Source of the DNA: a virus
Taxonomy: Duplodnaviria; Heunggongvirae; Uroviricota; Caudoviricetes
Length of the DNA stretch: 14,053 nt
Strand: one strand, 5' to 3'
IMG/VR virus record: IMGVR_UViG_2617270944_000005
Made by a program: the position numbers and the translations under genes
Shown here: piece by piece, positions 1,532 to 14,053 of the stretch
How the letters are laid out: each line of letters starts with the position of its first letter
How positions within the stretch are numbered: the stretch's first letter is position 1
Notes under the pieces: generated by a model
What the model saw: only the letters and a program-made list of their open reading frames with translations
Database searches by the model: none
What the model was told of the DNA's origin: nothing

Positions 1532-1741
1532 TTAATTTGAATACAATGCAATTCTCGAGGACTGAAGTTTCTCGCAATTAAAATTTATCAGTTTTACTTT
1601 CTGCTCTCTGGAAACGCCTGCTTCTTTTTTACCTGAGAGCATTTTTTCGCATTCTGATTTCGTTAGTTTAGATTTTGAATATCTTGTCCAGTTAGTAGGA
1701 GTGCCACCTTCCTTTTCAATAGTGGCGGTAATTTTATACAT
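1532..1741 (-). CDS. ydaC: Small prophage protein YdaC-like (DUF1187-type), 69 aa
   Basis: Start chosen at MYKITATIEKEGG, preceded by a GGAGGTG Shine-Dalgarno; ORF track shows a longer 93-aa version from 1813. Start overlaps the ralR stop by 8 nt. Confidence 0.75.
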   Translation of the reverse strand: MYKITATIEKEGGTPTNWTRYSKSKLTKSECEKMLSGKKEAGVSREQKVKLINFNCEKLQSSRIALYSN

Positions 1742-2794: not shown

Positions 2795-5387
2795 TTGCAT
2801 ATTCCTTAGCCCAGCGGGGCAGTGATAATGTCTTAATAGCTGGCCATTCATCGGTATTCAGGCAGTCAGACAGGGTTCGCAGATTGCGGTGATATTCCTG
2901 TTGACCTGCCAGTTTTGCTTCTTCGCCCATCATGAAAATTTCAACCGGATAACGTCCGCATTCAATAGTTGTGCTGGCAACCAGAAAAACGAAAGTTGGC
3001 TGCACTCCAAACTGTGCTTCATAACCGTCACTGTAGAACGCATCCTGAACGTGATAGCGGTAGTCGTAATAAGCGGTTTTGAATCGTTGAATATCCGCCG
3101 TAGTTTTCACGTCCATGATCCAGTGAAATTCAGGGATAATTTTGTCCGGACGGCACCGACACAAAATTCCTGTTTCAGGATCTTCCCAGTAAATTGATGA
3201 TTCAGCGTGTCCGGCGCTTTCAACAAGCCATTGCCCCAGCGGCAAAGCCATAACGCTTTGATACATGAGTTCAATTTTCCGGCCTTCTTCCGCAGTGATA
3301 ACCGTTTTTCCTGTGCTTGCGCATTCCATCAGAAACGCTTTCTCTTCTTCTTTTCCGGCGTTTGTACGGCGGTTAAATTCAGGTGCTACGATAAAGCGGT
3401 TACTGAATTCTTCCGGTTCAAGTACCCGGCAGTGGAAAGCAGTTCCTAAATCGAGCGTTTTTGTCTTTGTGGTGTCCACGGGGGCATTTTTACGCCACAA
3501 ATATAGTGCCGGAGTATCAGCAATGTCATCGAGCTGAGACTTACTGATACCGGGACCCGCGTGGTAATTCTCATTCGAAATTCCGTAATAAATACCTGGC
3601 TCTATGTCTTCTACGATTACGGGATCTGCGACTTCGCCAGTTTCATCACTGCAATCGCGATGCGGATCGCTGCCAGCATTCTCATTGTGCGGATGTTCAG
3701 CGCCTTCCATTTCCTCCGGATCATTTTCCTTAGCTTCAACCTGACTCTCTTCATCGAATGTTTCCTGGTATGTTGCGTCGCCCATCACCGCACCACAGTC
3801 AGGGCAGTTATCCCCGCCAGTCTGGCCGCAGGCATTGCAGGCTATTTCCGGTTCCTGTTGCACTACTGGCTCAGGTTGATTCATATCTGGGCTGGTTTTT
3901 TCCGTTTCTGGCTGGTTCTGGTACACACAATCGCGAGTCTGGATCCCCTTTACCCATTTCGGATCGTTCGGGTCGCTAATTCCGTCAACAAATTCACCAC
4001 GTGATGCAGCAAGCAATTTATCGGCATCGACAGGATTTTTTGATGGAATGTTTTTCCGGGCTTCATGGAGTTCTGCCCGCAGTTCCTGATATTTCGCATC
4101 AACAGAATTTACCTGTGACTGAGCATCCAGCGGCTGCGTGTCCTGATGATGTTCAGTTGCGTCCGGTTCCATTGTTTCAGCCTCTCCCTGTTCAACTGCC
4201 GTTGTTCCAGATGGTTGCGGTTTTTCTTCATCATCCTGTTTTCCTTCTTCTGTTACTCGCTGCGGCATCGGGGCAGAGGAGCGACCGCAGGCAATATCCA
4301 CGATTTCCGGATCAGGGTTGGCATGATCGGTTTCAGTCAGTACTTTGTTCAGATATTCAGTGACGTGCGCGGGGATGACCTCGATCCCAATTGGTGCTTC
4401 TTTTACGGACGCAACCACGATGGCGCGGGAATAATCCAGCCCGCCAGGCATGGTGATGAATTTGTCGCGGAAAACAGAAAAGGGCGGTTTATTTTCAGCG
4501 ATAATTTCCTCAATGCGTTTAGCGTGTGCCGGATGAAGGTTATAGATGTCCAGATCCATTGAACGGGCCAGTACGCCAGTGGCTACGTCGCGCGCCAGTG
4601 ACGTCAGATCGTGTACGAAACCTTCGCCGCGATCGGTGAGGTTTCCGCCGCCAGCATTAGCACCGGAAGCCGTGCAAGTGATGTGTGAAACACGATTACC
4701 CTTCATCCACTCTTTTGTCAGCAGTCCTCGATCGGTGTAGTCAGCGTTCAGGTATGCTTCGAAAAAAGCAGTTATCAGTCCCAGGTTTGAATTACCAGGA
4801 TTAGGGAAAACTTTGTCAGTGTCACGAACCAGTTTGTGGAGTTCGCGAATTTCCAGCGGGTCGAGCAGGCTGGTTTTGTGGGAAACAGCCAGGGCAGTAA
4901 CAGCCGGTAGTTCTTCAGCCCGAGCAATGTGTAATGCCTGGAGTCCGTCGCGTGAAACGTGCGTTACCGGTTTTTCGCTGCCGTGTTGAGCAAGCCAACG
5001 AATGGGCAGTTCCTGGCCAGAAATTGGGAGTAGCATATTCTCCTCAATCTCAGTCATGTCTTCGCCGTTGACGTTGGTATTGCCTTGATAGTGAGCGTTG
5101 TCTGGTGCTGCTCCCGGTTTTAGTTCCCATGTCATGGAGTCTTTGCTGAGTTGATAGCGTTCACTCCAGGTAAAATCGATCTCACCTTCAGCGGGCAGGT
5201 CATTAACGACAGGAAAATTCGTGGCAACAGCTTTAAAATAGCTGCTCAGTTTTTTACCTGACTTAACGATCAGGTAGTCCAGAGTGGCACAGGTCGATTC
5301 AAAATCGTTGCTTGCCCACAGGACGACGTCAGGTTCACCGGATGATTTTTTCGCTTTCCGTAACAGGAAGAGTGGTTTTGTGCTCAT
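2787..5387 (-). CDS. recE: Exodeoxyribonuclease VIII (RecE), 866 aa
   Basis: 866-aa ORF starting [24 protein letters not shown]; acidic low-complexity central region and a conserved C-terminal nuclease part; directly upstream of recT as in the Rac recET operon. Confidence 0.95.
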
Positions 5388-5458
5388 TGTTTTTTAACCT
5401 CAACTCAGATTAAAATTCGTTTTGTTCAGTGAATGATCTTGCCGGATACACACTGTTC

Positions 5459-5483
5459 ATAGCCTGCGCCATACGCAGGCTAT
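5459..5483 (-). terminator. Perfect 10-bp stem / 5-nt loop hairpin at the racC-recE junction (possible terminator or RNA structure)
   Basis: ATAGCCTGCG-ccata-CGCAGGCTAT read directly from the sequence; lies 6 nt downstream of the racC stop on the minus strand. The T-rich run (TTCTTTCAGATTT) follows it on the plus strand, not the minus strand, so canonical intrinsic termination of the racC transcript is not supported. Confidence 0.35.
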
Positions 5484-5488
5484 TTCTT

Positions 5489-5764
5489 TCAGATTTCACC
5501 TTTTAATTTCATTGCAATTAGAGTTGCCAGAAATTCGGCTTTTTTTTCTGCGGGCAGATTCTTTCCGATATGCACCAGGCACATTTTTTTGACACCTTCA
5601 TCAAGTGTTTTTACGTTGCCTGATGGACCATCGATATCAACCACAGTGAATGGGGTTTCTTTATTTTCTGTTTTAATTACGTAGCCAATGCGCTTTCCTT
5701 CCAGATTCACCTCGTGAACAATGTCATCGGTAGTTACAACAGTGGCTTCATAATTGGTAATCAT
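5489..5764 (-). CDS. racC: Rac prophage protein RacC-like, 91 aa
   Basis: Start at MITNYEATVVTTDDIV with an AAGGAG Shine-Dalgarno upstream; located immediately upstream of recE as in Rac. Confidence 0.8.
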   Translation of the reverse strand: MITNYEATVVTTDDIVHEVNLEGKRIGYVIKTENKETPFTVVDIDGPSGNVKTLDEGVKKMCLVHIGKNLPAEKKAEFLATLIAMKLKGEI

Positions 5765-5838
5765 GTTTTTCTCCTTAATTAAGGTTGAGCGAATACCTGC
5801 CATTTCTGGCATAAATTCAGTTTCGAATAGTCAATTAA

Positions 5839-6009
5839 TTAAAGTTCATGTGCCATCTGGTCTTTTTCGGCACAAGCTTCACTGCAATATTTTCTCGGTT
5901 CGTCTTTTGATAAAATCCCGTGCATGAAGTGAAGCATTCTTTCAATAGCTTTGCTTTCTTCAACGTCTTTTTTGCAAAGGTGGTAAGCACATTTTATTTT
6001 CTTAGTCAT
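5839..6009 (-). CDS. ydaE: Small zinc-ribbon-like protein YdaE-like, 56 aa (absent from the ORF track because under 60 aa)
   Basis: Translated by hand from the minus strand: [56 protein letters not shown]; four Cys as CxxxxC...CxxxC; start ATG overlaps the kilR stop (TGATG). An in-frame ATG two codons upstream (6015) has GGAG 5 nt upstream and is an alternative start. Confidence 0.7.
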   Translation of the reverse strand: MTKKIKCAYHLCKKDVEESKAIERMLHFMHGILSKDEPRKYCSEACAEKDQMAHEL

Positions 6010-6230
6010 CACCATGACTCCGCCTTTACAGGTAAACCATCACGACCGAGGAAGACTTTAATCATGCGGTCAGTAATGAATGTTTTTGTGGTCAGGTTAC
6101 GAATATATAGTTTTCGCTTTTTAATATTGTTTGCCGAGGCAATATATGTCCGGCCTTCATGAAGAACATAATCGCCAGGAGTCACACACTGACGTGGTAT
6201 TTCATCAGTTCCGAAGTGATGTGCAATCAT
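6009..6230 (-). CDS. kilR: Killing protein KilR (cell-division inhibitor), 73 aa
   Basis: [35 protein letters not shown] matches KilR as I recall it; GGAG 8 nt upstream of the chosen ATG; ORF track shows a 77-aa version starting 4 codons earlier. Confidence 0.85.
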
Positions 6231-6671
6231 AATTATCTCCATTTTTACAAATGAACTTTGTTGATGCGGTGTCTGGTGCCTCCAGGTGACTGCAACCAGT
6301 TAACAATTACAGTCGGCTTTCCCACCCAAACCAATAAGGACTAACATGACTTTTAACTGTGCCACGTGCGCTTAGCCGCATTCACCGCATCACAAAATTC
6401 ACTTTAAAAAGGGCGGACATCAGCCGAACTTCAAGAAAAAAACTGATGCCGCCAGGACTACACACAGCAATGTCGTTATTTACAACCGGAGGCGCACTCC
6501 CTCCATTTAAATTTAACAGACAAGACCGACTCTTTATGGATATCGGAAATGCGCCTTCGTGTTGTGCCCGGTTTTATTTCACCACCTCCGGGCTTCGGTG
6601 GTCTCGGCTATACCCCTACAGCGAGAGCTTGTGTTAACATTTCAATACCCTTACAGTTGAGAGTTATTGAT

Positions 6672-7160
6672 ATGTTGGATGTATTTACTCCATTGTTGAA
6701 ACTTTTTGCTAACGAGCCACTCGAAAGACTTATGTATACGATTATCATTTTTGGTCTCACTCTCTGGCTGATACCGAAAGAGTTTACTGTCGCATTCAAT
6801 GCTTATACTGAAATACCTTGGCTCTTTCAGATTATCGTTTTTGCCTTTTCTTTCGTGGTCGCCATTTCCTTCTCAAGATTGCGAGCACATATTCAAAAGC
6901 ATTATTCATTACTACCAGAGCAACGAGTATTGCTTCGTTTATCTGAGAAAGAAATCGCTGTATTTAAAGATTTCCTTAAAACAGGAAATCTTATTATCAC
7001 TTCTCCTTGCCGTAACCCGGTTATGAAAAAATTAGAACGGAAGGGCATCATTCAACATCAGAGTGATAGCGCAAACTGTTCTTATTATCTCGTCACCGAA
7101 AAATACTCCCATTTTATGAAGTTATTCTGGAACAGCAGGAGTAGACGTTTTAATCGTTAG
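6672..7160 (+). CDS. sieB: Superinfection exclusion protein B (SieB), 162 aa, membrane protein
   Basis: MLDVFTPLLKLFANEPLERLMYTIIIFGLTLWLIPKEF with hydrophobic segments; the 203-aa ORF in the track starts upstream, but the start is placed at MLDVF to match the 162-aa SieB length I recall. Confidence 0.88.
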   Translation: MLDVFTPLLKLFANEPLERLMYTIIIFGLTLWLIPKEFTVAFNAYTEIPWLFQIIVFAFSFVVAISFSRLRAHIQKHYSLLPEQRVLLRLSEKEIAVFKDFLKTGNLIITSPCRNPVMKKLERKGIIQHQSDSANCSYYLVTEKYSHFMKLFWNSRSRRFNR

Positions 7161-7312
7161 CTTACTGTGTGCTTCTCCAACCATCGGCGCGCACCAGTTT
7201 CGGTTTTAAATGTTTTGCTTTTGGTATACGTCATGGCAGTGAACGTTCCATCCTGGTTGGGGAACACGCCGCACACCAGGGATTCGTTGTTGCCGAGGTC
7301 GATTTTTTGCAT
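7157..7312 (-). CDS. ydaF: Small prophage protein YdaF-like, 51 aa
   Basis: Hand translation of the minus strand: MQKIDLGNNESLVCGVFPNQDGTFTAMTYTKSKTFKTETGARRWLEKHTVS; 3' end overlaps the sieB 3' end convergently by 4 nt; position matches Rac ydaF between sieB and racR. Not in the ORF track (under 60 aa). Confidence 0.6.
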   Translation of the reverse strand: MQKIDLGNNESLVCGVFPNQDGTFTAMTYTKSKTFKTETGARRWLEKHTVS

Positions 7313-7322
7313 TTTGCGAATC

Positions 7323-7457
7323 TCACATCTTGTTGCTACGTATAGCGACTTCTGCCTGCCAGAGATCCCAGTCGTTGCTGCGTAAAGCCTGCACAGCCTG
7401 GTTGTAAGTGATACCGCAACAATCCATCAAATACTGAACTACTTCGTAATGCACCAT
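7323..7457 (-). CDS. ydaG: Small prophage protein YdaG-like, 44 aa
   Basis: Hand translation: MVHYEVVQYLMDCCGITYNQAVQALRSNDWDLWQAEVAIRSNKM; GGGGAGAG Shine-Dalgarno-like sequence 6-8 nt upstream; size and position match Rac ydaG. Confidence 0.55.
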   Translation of the reverse strand: MVHYEVVQYLMDCCGITYNQAVQALRSNDWDLWQAEVAIRSNKM

Positions 7458-7623
7458 CTTATCTCTCCCCTTAACGCCGGGTGGCGGAACTAACTGCTGC
7501 ACTGCAAAATTTGAATCCCGCCGTCATGTTCTTACGCCTCGGGCTGGCTACTTAACCCCTGACCACTGCCTGGTAACTCGAAGTATTGCCCTGCATTCTG
7601 TGGGGCGGGGTGGGTGGCAGGCA

Positions 7624-7671
7624 TATAATGTACTTTGTGTTCATTGTTGTAAAGTACATTTAGTACATTTT
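7624..7671. promoter_or_regulatory. Candidate leftward operator/promoter (OL-like): 10-bp inverted repeat AATGTACTTT / AAAGTACATT plus a third AGTACATTT copy
   Basis: Read directly: AATGTACTTT at 7627-7636 and its exact reverse complement at 7651-7660, 14 bp apart, with another AGTACATTT at 7662-7670; plus-strand TATAAT at 7624-7629; possible minus-strand -35 TTTACA (7648-7653) and -10 CATTAT (7625-7630) for leftward transcription toward ydaG. Confidence 0.4.
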
Positions 7672-7743
7672 ATGTGTAAAAAAATGAGATGGGATAAAGT
7701 GAAGCACAAACCCGGAGGAAGGCGCTACCGGATTTATGCTGGT

Positions 7744-8163
7744 TTAAGAGGCTTTTTGTTTTTTCTTTCGTGCTAACTCTTCGTAAATTGCATTGTACTT
7801 CTGTTTTTTCTCTTCAAGAGTTTTTAAAAGTTCATCTGTCTCACTGTCAGGGAGCTCGTCCAGAAGGTCAATGATGATTTTTTGTCTTGGATTTAACTCC
7901 TGATAGAAACGTACCTGTCCACTTTCTTCTGTATCCTCTCCCAAAAGATAGGTTGGTGTTGTTCCTATTAGTGTTGCTAATTCCCTTAATTTCTCCCGGC
8001 GAGGAATTGTTTCGCCATTAAACCATTTGCTAACCGCTTTTGGTGTTAATTTCATTCGACGGGCAATTTCTGCCTGCCTTCCATGTTGTTCATAACCAGC
8101 GTTTTCACAGGCTAGCGCAAGCCTACTGGCGAACTCTTTACGCGCTTTATCTTCATGAACCAT
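7744..8163 (-). CDS. racR: Prophage repressor, XRE-family HTH (RacR-like, cI analogue), 139 aa
   Basis: HTH region QAEIARRMKLTPKAVSKWFNGETIPRREKLRELATLIG; divergent from the cro-like ydaS; no alternative standard start upstream in frame before a stop. Confidence 0.85.
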   Translation of the reverse strand: MVHEDKARKEFASRLALACENAGYEQHGRQAEIARRMKLTPKAVSKWFNGETIPRREKLRELATLIGTTPTYLLGEDTEESGQVRFYQELNPRQKIIIDLLDELPDSETDELLKTLEEKKQKYNAIYEELARKKKQKAS

Positions 8164-8183
8164 AAGTTCAATGATATTCGCTC

Positions 8184-8218
8184 TTGAATGTACTGTCAGT
8201 TCTGTTATAGCATGTACT
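8184..8218. promoter_or_regulatory. Candidate rightward operator/promoter (OR-like) in the racR-ydaS divergent intergenic region
   Basis: Two copies of the same AATGTACT / ATGTACT motif seen at the OL-like site (8187-8194 and 8212-8218, 24-25 bp apart), overlapping a plausible -35 TTGAAT (8184-8189) and -10 TATAGC (8207-8212) for ydaS. Confidence 0.45.
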
Positions 8219-8242
8219 CAAAGTTCACATTGTGAGGGTGAT

Positions 8243-8497
8243 ATGAACCAGAAAACACTTGAAGATGTAATCAAAACTGTTCGCGTTGCTGTTGTGGCCG
8301 ACGTTTGTGGTGTCAGCCAAAGAGCAATCTATAAATGGATGGATAACGGAAAATTGCCTCGCACAGAATATACCGGCGAAACAAATTACGCTGAAAAAAT
8401 CGCTCTTGCATCAAACGGATTATTTTCTGCCGATGCAATTTTAACTATTGGCAGGAATAAAACTACTACGAAAAAGCTGATGGGAGTTGATTCATGA
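8243..8497 (+). CDS. ydaS: Cro-like HTH protein YdaS, 84 aa
   Basis: MNQKTLEDVIKTVRVAVVADVCGVSQRAIYKWM (HTH); start chosen at the ATG preceded by GAGGGTG; the ORF track's 108-aa version starts at 8171 inside the operator region. Stop overlaps the ydaT start (ATGA). Confidence 0.8.
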   Translation: MNQKTLEDVIKTVRVAVVADVCGVSQRAIYKWMDNGKLPRTEYTGETNYAEKIALASNGLFSADAILTIGRNKTTTKKLMGVDS

Positions 8498-13033: not shown

Positions 13034-13730
13034 TGCTCTCAGCCATCGCGTTGTCATACGAGTCGCCTGTACTCCCTGTTGATGCCAGTAATCCGGCTTC
13101 TTTTAGTCGCTCCGTATAGGCCAGTGACACATACTGAGAGCCTTTATCGCTGTGATGGATGGTGCCAGACGGACGACGGGCCCACAACGCCTGCTCCAGC
13201 GCATCCAGCACGAATGTCGTTTCCATAGACGATGAGACCCGCCACCCCACGATGTATCCGGCAAACACATCAATGATAAACGCCACATAGACGAAGCCCT
13301 GCCATGTGCTGACGTAAGTAAAATCAGCCACCCACAGCTGGTCAGGTCGTTCTGCCACGAACTGACGGTTTACGCGGTCGCCTGCGGCAACGGCTTTCCG
13401 GCTGATGGTCGTACGGACCTTTTTACCCCGGAGAACACCGGCAAGTCCCATAACCGCCATGAGACGTGCCACTGTACATCTGGCCACCCTGATTCCTTCC
13501 CGTAACAACTGACGCCAGACTTTACGCACACCGTACACCTGATGATTTTCATCGTATACGCGCTGTATCTCTCTCTTCAGCCAGTCGTCGTGCTGCGCAC
13601 GGGCACTGCGTTTATCCGGATGATGTCGCTGTTGCTGACAATGGTAATACGTTGACGGGGCAATATGCAGTTCGCTGCATACCGGTCCGACCCCGTACTG
13701 CTCACGCAGCTTATCCAGCAGTGGCATCAT
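12840..13730 (-). CDS. IS3-family transposase OrfB (DDE integrase-like catalytic domain), 296 aa
   Basis: DDE transposase hallmarks (WVADFTYV ... HSDKGSQY ... [15 protein letters not shown]); in the -1 frame relative to orfA, overlapping it by 4 nt. Confidence 0.9.
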
Positions 13731-14053
13731 TTTTTCCAGAGGCGGTCGAACTCCGCCTTCGCAAAATAAGCGGAAGCCTGGCGAAGGATATCGTTACTGC
13801 GGCGCAGTTCACGATTTTCACGTTCCAGCTCTTTCAGACGCTGACGTTCCGCGCTGGTGAGCCCACCATCACCGCCCCCGGTATCCCGCTCATGCTGGCG
13901 AACCCAGACACGCAGAGTCTCCGGCGTACAGCCAATCTTTGGGGCAATGGAACAAATTGCCGCCCACTGTGAGTCATATTCATCCTGACTTTCCAGAACC
14001 ATACGAATCGCCCGCTGACGGACTTCGGGGGAAAAACGAGTATTTTTAGTCAT
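13727..14053 (-). CDS. IS3-family transposase OrfA (HTH plus leucine-zipper region), 108 aa
   Basis: [30 protein letters not shown]... with a heptad-like [20 protein letters not shown] segment; ends in an A6 run directly before its stop, at the orfB overlap. Confidence 0.9.

Follow-up and report, generated by a model that had tools for sequence, protein, structure and literature searches.

The segment 7625-7667 belongs to a Rac-type prophage and is very probably OL/PL, the left operator and the promoter of early leftward transcription, of an immunity cassette of the HK022 type; there, a 139-aa repressor bound to the sites OL1 and OL2 would silence PL. The segment is part of a stretch of 14,053 nucleotides that was analysed as a whole and is referred to here as the window. 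Site sequences, spacing, homology, the match between repressor and sites, and conservation were computed, and by these comparisons the operator/promoter call is strongly supported. A sequence-only reading of the window had proposed an operator for the adjacent repressor over a leftward early promoter, in the position of a lambda-like OL/PL, and the comparative tests supported this proposal. Two of its details had to be revised. A pair of adjacent 15-bp pseudo-palindromes, as in HK022, is the functional unit, in place of a 10-bp inverted repeat plus a third half-site, and the neighbouring gene, which had been named racR, encodes a product that matches K-12 RacR in only 12 of 33 residues, within the helix-turn-helix. 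As features of an HK022-type OL/PL, the site format, the 24-bp spacing over a promoter, the nucleotide homology, and a cognate repressor and Cro with OR sites were all found; an OL3 about 53 bp beyond OL2 was not. The coordinates are collected in Table 1.

Table 1. Coordinates of the OL/PL region, the immunity cassette, and related loci
Feature	Position	Strand	Remarks
OL1, TGTACTTTGTGTTCA	7629-7643		TGWAC-N5-GTWCA with 0 mismatches; overlaps PL -10 and spacer; half-sites invariant in 9 alleles
OL2, AGTACATTTAGTACA	7653-7667		1 mismatch; abuts PL -35; allele variation confined to N5 spacer
PL -35, TTTACA	7648-7653	minus	Promoter scan; hexamer and position same as annotated HK022 pL -35
PL -10, CATTAT	7625-7630	minus	Promoter scan, 17-bp spacer; aligns with HK022 pL CATCAT; invariant in 9 alleles
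Predicted PL transcription start and left joint of immunity cassette	7616-7619	minus	Inferred about 7 nt downstream of -10
Leader of leftward early transcript	7458-7617	minus	About 150-160 nt; common to all cassette types
First leftward genes, ydaG and ydaF	7323-7457, 7157-7312	minus	RefSeq annotation of identical locus; Pfam/PHROG matches
Hairpin directly after repressor stop codon	7703-7740	minus	-19.2 kcal/mol, z = -5.0; separates repressor transcript from OL/PL
Repressor, 139 aa	7744-8163	minus	HK022-CI-type helix-turn-helix domain and short helical C-terminal tail; no S24 self-cleavage domain
OR3, TGAACCATAAGTTCA	8156-8170		Overlaps repressor start codon (8163-8161); repressor-sense strand identical to HK022 oR3
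OR2, TGTACTGTCAGTTCT	8189-8203		Overlaps -35 of repressor promoter (CTGACA, 8199-8194)
OR1, TGTACTCAAAGTTCA	8213-8227		TGWAC-N5-GTWCA match; OR alignment with HK022
Cro-like gene, 84 aa	8243-8497	plus	60% identity to HK022 Cro, E = 1e-33
Exchangeable immunity cassette	7618-8482		OL/PL, hairpin, repressor, OR, cro; flanks 96-99.8% identical to K-12 Rac/third variant
Gene order of window, left to right			intR, xisR, rcbA, ralR, recT, recE, racC, ydaE, kilR, sieB, ydaF, ydaG, repressor, cro-like, ydaT-family
K-12 RacR-type promoter and sites	L002 3627-3668 = NC_000913.3 1419626-1419667		Equivalent to window 7627-7668
Cassette of NZ_CP139177.1 (L131)	1735-1769, 2269-2302 (motif regions); 1813-2232 (repressor)		Third variant
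Extra sites, given with the OL3/HK022 extra-site observation	L028 1038-1052, L038 1547-1561, L005 163-177

Left Operator Sites and the Predicted PL Promoter

The repeat was found as first described: the 10-bp arm AATGTACTTT (7627-7636) and its reverse complement AAAGTACATT (7651-7660) are 100% complementary across a 14-nt gap, and a third AGTACATTT was confirmed at 7662-7670, in tandem with another copy at 7653-7661. By itself, one perfect inverted repeat of 10 bp carries little weight. With a gap of at most 30, four of them occur in the window, compared with 0.43 expected from dinucleotide shuffles, and about 35% of the shuffles contain at least one. Others with a short gap are located at 254-292, 5459-5483 (between recE and racC), and 6967-6992. 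The core ATGTACT occurs in five copies in the 14,053 bp against 1.07 expected, a number reached by 3 of 200 shuffles, and all five are found at 7628-7668 and 8188-8218, flanking the repressor gene on both sides. This recurrence is not due to chance. The arms themselves parse as AAT-GTAC-TTT and AAA-GTAC-ATT, that is, as the self-complementary GTAC core of different operators with A/T flanks.

From the five annotated sites of HK022 (GenBank X16093) the format TGWAC-N5-GTWCA was derived. Allowing one mismatch, it matched the window seven times, compared with 1.38 matches expected and a count of seven in none of 200 shuffles, and five of the seven matches flank the repressor gene. The two on the left, OL1 and OL2, are 24 bp apart from centre to centre; the earlier statement that the same motif recurs on the OR side was borne out by three matching sites at 8156-8227. 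At the nucleotide level, window 7620-7684 is 81.5% identical to HK022 oL/pL over 65 bp (E = 2e-12). In the alignment with the X16093 features, OL1 corresponds to the HK022 oL site TGAACTTTAAGTACA and OL2 to TGTACTATTGGTACT; the HK022 site positions rest on these features and on the summary in PMC8053113.

Promoter elements had been suggested on both strands. The suggestion held for the minus strand, where a sigma-70-like promoter was called, whereas the plus strand offers only TATAAT (7624-7629) with no usable -35. The called promoter, PL, matches the consensus at only 9 of 12 positions in the promoter scan. Its leader gave no significant fold (z = -0.02), and no put- or nut-like structure was seen in it. 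To the left of ydaF follow kilR, ydaE, racC, recE, recT, ralR, xisR, and intR. A third left site, OL3, was found with up to two mismatches neither at 7706-7720 nor elsewhere in 7668-7743, and a search of Rfam at gathering thresholds returned no match in 7300-8300. The hairpin behind the repressor stop codon may terminate the repressor transcript or stabilise its 3' end; no canonical T/U-run follows its stem, and the terminator scan did not call it. The YdaT-type site TTGATT-N6-AATCAA (PMC9986795) was also considered and bears no resemblance to the repeat.

Repressor and Right Operator

The live phage Tritos encodes, as its "CI repressor", the same protein as 7744-8163, and residues 4-102 of this protein are 47.5% identical to the CI protein of coliphage HK022 (both by tblastn of phage genomes). 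Within the helix-turn-helix, the segment TPKAVSKWFNGE of the repressor differs from TPKAISKWFNGE of HK022 CI only by V/I and T/S exchanges. By these comparisons the protein is classified as HK022-CI-type and not as an orthologue of K-12 RacR. In an alignment with five long relatives, the S24 self-cleavage region SAG...GDSM...KRL was missing, and no Pfam S24 match was obtained. As judged from its sequence, with neither the Ala-Gly site nor the Ser/Lys dyad found, the protein is not a self-cleaving repressor of the LexA/CI type. For its C-terminal tail no relative of solved structure was found, the only matches being designed helical proteins (E ~0.01); among deposited phages the tail occurs only in Tritos and three vB_EcoS phages.

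A scan of species-representative genomes with the repressor returned a single, identical locus, in Shigella, and diversity was therefore taken from the phage and IMG/VR collections. In Klebsiella phage 2b and Salmonella phage SI8, whose repressors are 63.5% and 39.6% identical, respectively, no OL pair was found within 1.1-1.5 kb downstream, which is probably explained by intervening genes or a different specificity.

On the right side of the repressor gene, the OR1-OR2 and OR2-OR3 spacings of 24 and 33 bp are equal to those of HK022. The predicted repressor promoter, CTGACA-17-TATCAT (8171-8199, minus strand), matches the consensus at 10 of 12 positions, and its start would coincide with the A of the repressor ATG or lie beside it. 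The mRNA would then be leaderless, as has also been reported for lambda cI, paaR2, and K-12 racR.

Conservation of the Sites and Association with the Repressor Type

Nine alleles were compared, namely the window, Tritos, vB_EcoS-673R7, a Shigella prophage, and five E. coli chromosomes, all of them retrieved by overall similarity or protein homology without reference to the operator sites. Eight columns are variable within 7629-7667, and all of these lie in the two N5 spacers or the promoter spacer. The 20 half-site positions are free of variation (hypergeometric P = 0.0012), as are the -10 and -35. Position 7658, in the right 10-bp arm, is T in seven of the nine alleles, which breaks the 10-bp repeat and leaves the 15-bp half-sites intact; the perfect 10-bp repeat is thus an accident of the window allele.

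IMG/VR was scanned with the OL/PL pattern, which yielded 120 viral loci. Because the pattern itself fixes the half-site positions, this set was used for association only and not for conservation. An HK022-type repressor N-domain was encoded upstream on the same strand in 109 of the 120 loci, and OR sites spaced by 24 and 33 bp were present in 106 of these 109. Six of the other 11 loci are cut less than 1 kb from the pattern. In a narrower, 1.6-kb scan, the short repressor was encoded in 55 loci, with 93-100% identity, and a long, self-cleaving repressor in 35, with 57-76% identity.

Alternative Readings of the Repeat

Four other readings of the repeat were weighed. A single long dyad with its centre at 7643/7644, formed by the arms 7627-7636 and 7651-7660 and occupied by one repressor oligomer, to which 7662-7670 would add an auxiliary half-site, would make use of the full complementarity of the arms in the window. 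This complementarity, however, is a consequence of the GTAC core, which is self-complementary and lies in A/T-rich flanks, and the T at 7658 makes the dyad imperfect in most relatives, whereas the 15-bp half-sites never vary. The long-dyad geometry is also absent from all OR sites, all five sites fit TGWAC-N5-GTWCA, and the HK022 annotation has two separate 15-bp sites at this place, so that one long dyad is very unlikely. The repeat could also function at the RNA level, by forming a hairpin that terminates or stabilises the repressor transcript at its 3' end, and minus-strand RNA of 7620-7675 does fold at -10.8 kcal/mol (z = -3.1). Yet such a score is expected of any palindromic operator pair; the stem is A/U-rich with no U-run behind it, the terminator scan gave no call, the allele substitutions are not compensatory, and the much stronger hairpin at 7703-7740 already stands in front of it. 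A function as RNA is thus extremely unlikely.

The plus-strand TATAAT might serve as the -10 of a rightward promoter for an RNA antisense to the repressor gene, regulated by the repeats. The hexamer is exact and is kept in the Rac-type alleles, but it is simply the complement of the leftward CATTATAT, and HK022 lacks it, with CATCATAAG as the aligned sequence. Neither a -35 nor an extended -10 accompanies it (the upstream sequence is GGGTGGCAGGCA), and the promoter scan made no call, which renders a rightward promoter highly improbable. That the repeat arose by chance in A/T-rich intergenic DNA and has no function would agree with the frequency of perfect 10-bp inverted repeats in the window and its shuffles described above. 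Against this reading stand the clustering of the motif on both flanks of the repressor gene, the homology of the block to characterised HK022 operators, the conservation in favour of the half-sites, and the presence of one repressor type at 109 of the 120 loci with the pattern. Chance has next to no probability left and is effectively refuted by the comparative data.

The preferred reading, an HK022-type OL/PL, leads to the following scheme. By the precedents of HK022, lambda, and CP-933P, repressor dimers on OL1 and OL2 would exclude RNA polymerase from PL, and binding to the two sites is probably pairwise cooperative at the 24-bp spacing. With PL shut, the ydaG-ydaF-kilR-racC-recET-ralR-xis-int transcript, whose start would be near 7618, would be silenced. 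The Cro-like protein is probably a second reader of the same OL and OR sites, and the three OR sites would control the divergent repressor and cro promoters. A bridge might form between OL and OR over the distance of about 540-585 bp. Binding, cooperativity, the start, and looping are steps that we infer; a point against cooperative or looped binding is that the 139-aa repressor is without the C-terminal domain that mediates both in HK022 and lambda CI.

Rac Prophage Context and Exchange of the Cassette

The window represents a Rac-type prophage adjoining ttcA, and its region 7400-8300 is 100% identical to several non-K-12 E. coli chromosomes. Window 4001-7617 is 99.8% identical to the Rac prophage of MG1655; this identity ends at 7617, and the homology to HK022 starts at 7620. 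Beyond the joint at 7617/7618, K-12 Rac is unrelated to the window. The equivalent spot, directly behind racR, is taken there by TTGACA-17-TATAGT, a leftward promoter close to the consensus and bracketed by the RacR-type TAGGC-N3-GCCTA sites TAGGTAATGCCTA and TAGGCTATGCCTA. Five RacR-type sites occur in 7 kb of K-12 sequence (0.13 expected), all of them flanking racR, and the bracketed promoter looks like RacR's own "OL/PL". The window contains no match to TAGGC-N3-GCCTA at up to one mismatch; RacR-type and HK022-type sites are reciprocally absent from the window and K-12 prophages.

A third variant, NZ_CP139177.1, agrees with the window at 99.7% identity as far as 7615 and again, at 96.7%, from 8483 on. 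Between these joints it is unrelated, except for 76% identity over the part that codes for the repressor C terminus. Its motif ACCYATRGGT occurs twice at the OL position and twice at OR. The repressor of this variant likewise has 139 aa, with an unrelated N-terminal domain and a C-terminal tail homologous to that of the window repressor (LTPRQRIFLDLLDELPESEADNLLKTLEEKKQYYNMIYEE). A tail common to repressors with unrelated DNA-binding domains suggests a portable tail module. Since the flanks are shared, the interior is replaced, and each version has matched sites on both sides of its repressor, the segment 7618-8482 behaves as an exchangeable immunity cassette, the left joint of which coincides with the predicted PL start.

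Among 5,426 complete E. coli genomes, 3,790 contain the leader upstream of ydaG, with matches ending at 7612-7617, and 1,043, roughly a fifth, contain the full cassette. The positions 7612-7617 are a recurrent mosaic joint, and the leader occurs in Rac-like as well as Qin-like (ydfA/B/C, dicB) contexts. Tritos (OV696610; L003 2997-3035), with its identical repressor, has the same OL/PL and leader, and its downstream genes differ (DicF, dicB, ydfD). Elsewhere in the window, Rfam matched the RalA antitoxin sRNA at 1557-1735 (plus strand, 225 bits) and, at 13656-13772 (minus strand, 121 bits), the ALIL pseudoknot, a frameshift element of IS3-family insertion sequences. The small RNA KilS, encoded in K-12 between kilR and sieB (L002 2406-2503), should be present in the window because this stretch is 99.8% identical to K-12. 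Its expected position is 6406-6503 on the minus strand; no Rfam family matching KilS was found.

Implications

The analysis assigns a control region to the leftward operon (kilR, recET, ralR, xis/int) of a common Rac variant. As the immunity of this variant appears to be of the HK022 type and not that of K-12 RacR, results obtained with K-12 racR should not be transferred to carriers. The exact joint of the cassette at the predicted PL start recurs in thousands of genomes and illustrates cleanly how lambdoid phages exchange modules.

We consider it possible, if somewhat doubtful, that carriers possess a DNA-damage-proof immunity to HK022-immunity phages, that HK022 CI and Cro cross-talk with the Rac kil/recET genes, and that the tail is a portable module for oligomerisation or induction. 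Cross-immunity with HK022 would follow from the almost unchanged recognition helix and the near-identical operators, and the immunity would not be switchable by DNA damage because the repressor has no self-cleavage domain. If this is true, an HK022-type phage that enters the cell or already resides in it could, through its CI or Cro protein, shut off or release the Rac kil/recET genes.

Comparison with Known Systems

The logic of the lambda OL/PL is the same: across the repressor gene from OR, repressor sites lie over an early leftward promoter. In lambda, too, neighbouring sites are spaced by about 24 bp, and the cassette boundary is a classic immunity-region joint, as in the window. Lambda differs in its 17-bp sites of another sequence, its three OL sites, its N/nutL leader, and its self-cleaving CI. 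The likeness to lambda is thus best described as a functional analogy only.

CP-933P of E. coli O157:H7 is Rac-like and resembles the window in its short repressor without a cleavage domain, PaaR2, and its ydaS/ydaT-type neighbours. In reporter fusions, its PL933P with OL1-3 was repressed about 100-fold by PaaR2 and by the Cro-like YdaS (PMC8630535). However, the operators of CP-933P differ, with the consensus GTTTAGTAA in 18-bp palindromes and another repressor specificity. No sequence homology was seen between them and the window operators, and CP-933P has a toxin-antitoxin pair between repressor and PL, unlike the window.

K-12 Rac shares the prophage backbone, the position, and the architecture of two RacR-type sites around a leftward promoter. 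The site sequence is unrelated, as is the repressor apart from the weak helix-turn-helix match. The RacR operators O1-O3 have been given as T/ATAGGC-N3-GCCTAT/A (PMC9638921, PMC5700373). Lowering RacR in K-12 raised ydaG, ydaF, kilR, and racC 40- to 70-fold or more (PMC6765115), and the same pattern was obtained by CRISPRi in a 2026 preprint (bioRxiv 10.64898/2026.09.06.749655). A 2023 paper called the RacR regulon and the ydaFG operon uncharacterised (PMC11014345), and our literature search found no paper describing an OL/PL for the window cassette or for K-12 Rac.

The Crohn's-associated strain LF82 harbours the live phage Tritos, the repressor of which was transcribed there 24-fold above the prophage background (PMC9928086). 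Tritos forms plaques on MG1655 (PMC9928086), which fits heteroimmunity with K-12 RacR, and it was not induced by ciprofloxacin or trimethoprim (PMC9928086), which fits the missing self-cleavage domain.

The switch proposed here is of a textbook kind, and the oL/pL of HK022, its closest relative, has already been characterised. In both OR and OL, binding of HK022 CI to neighbouring operators is cooperative, and CI joins OL and OR in a loop (PMC8053113). With 235 aa, it carries the Ala-Gly/Ser/Lys self-cleavage domain, whereas the 139-aa window repressor ends in a short helical tail. HK022 has an OL3 53 bp from OL2 and an extra site about 270-300 bp downstream of OR, neither of which has a counterpart in the window; in some HK022-type viral loci (L028, L038), a third OL site occurs at exactly this 53-bp distance from OL2. 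Leader and downstream region of HK022 hold nun and putL in place of the Rac-type leader with ydaG, ydaF, and kilR. The OR of HK022 likewise comprises three sites with 24/33-bp spacing and OR3 over the repressor ATG. Its two oL sites are also 24 bp apart, one over the -10 and the other abutting the TTTACA -35, and in the alignment these sites and the two promoter hexamers fall, column by column, on those of the OL block of the window.
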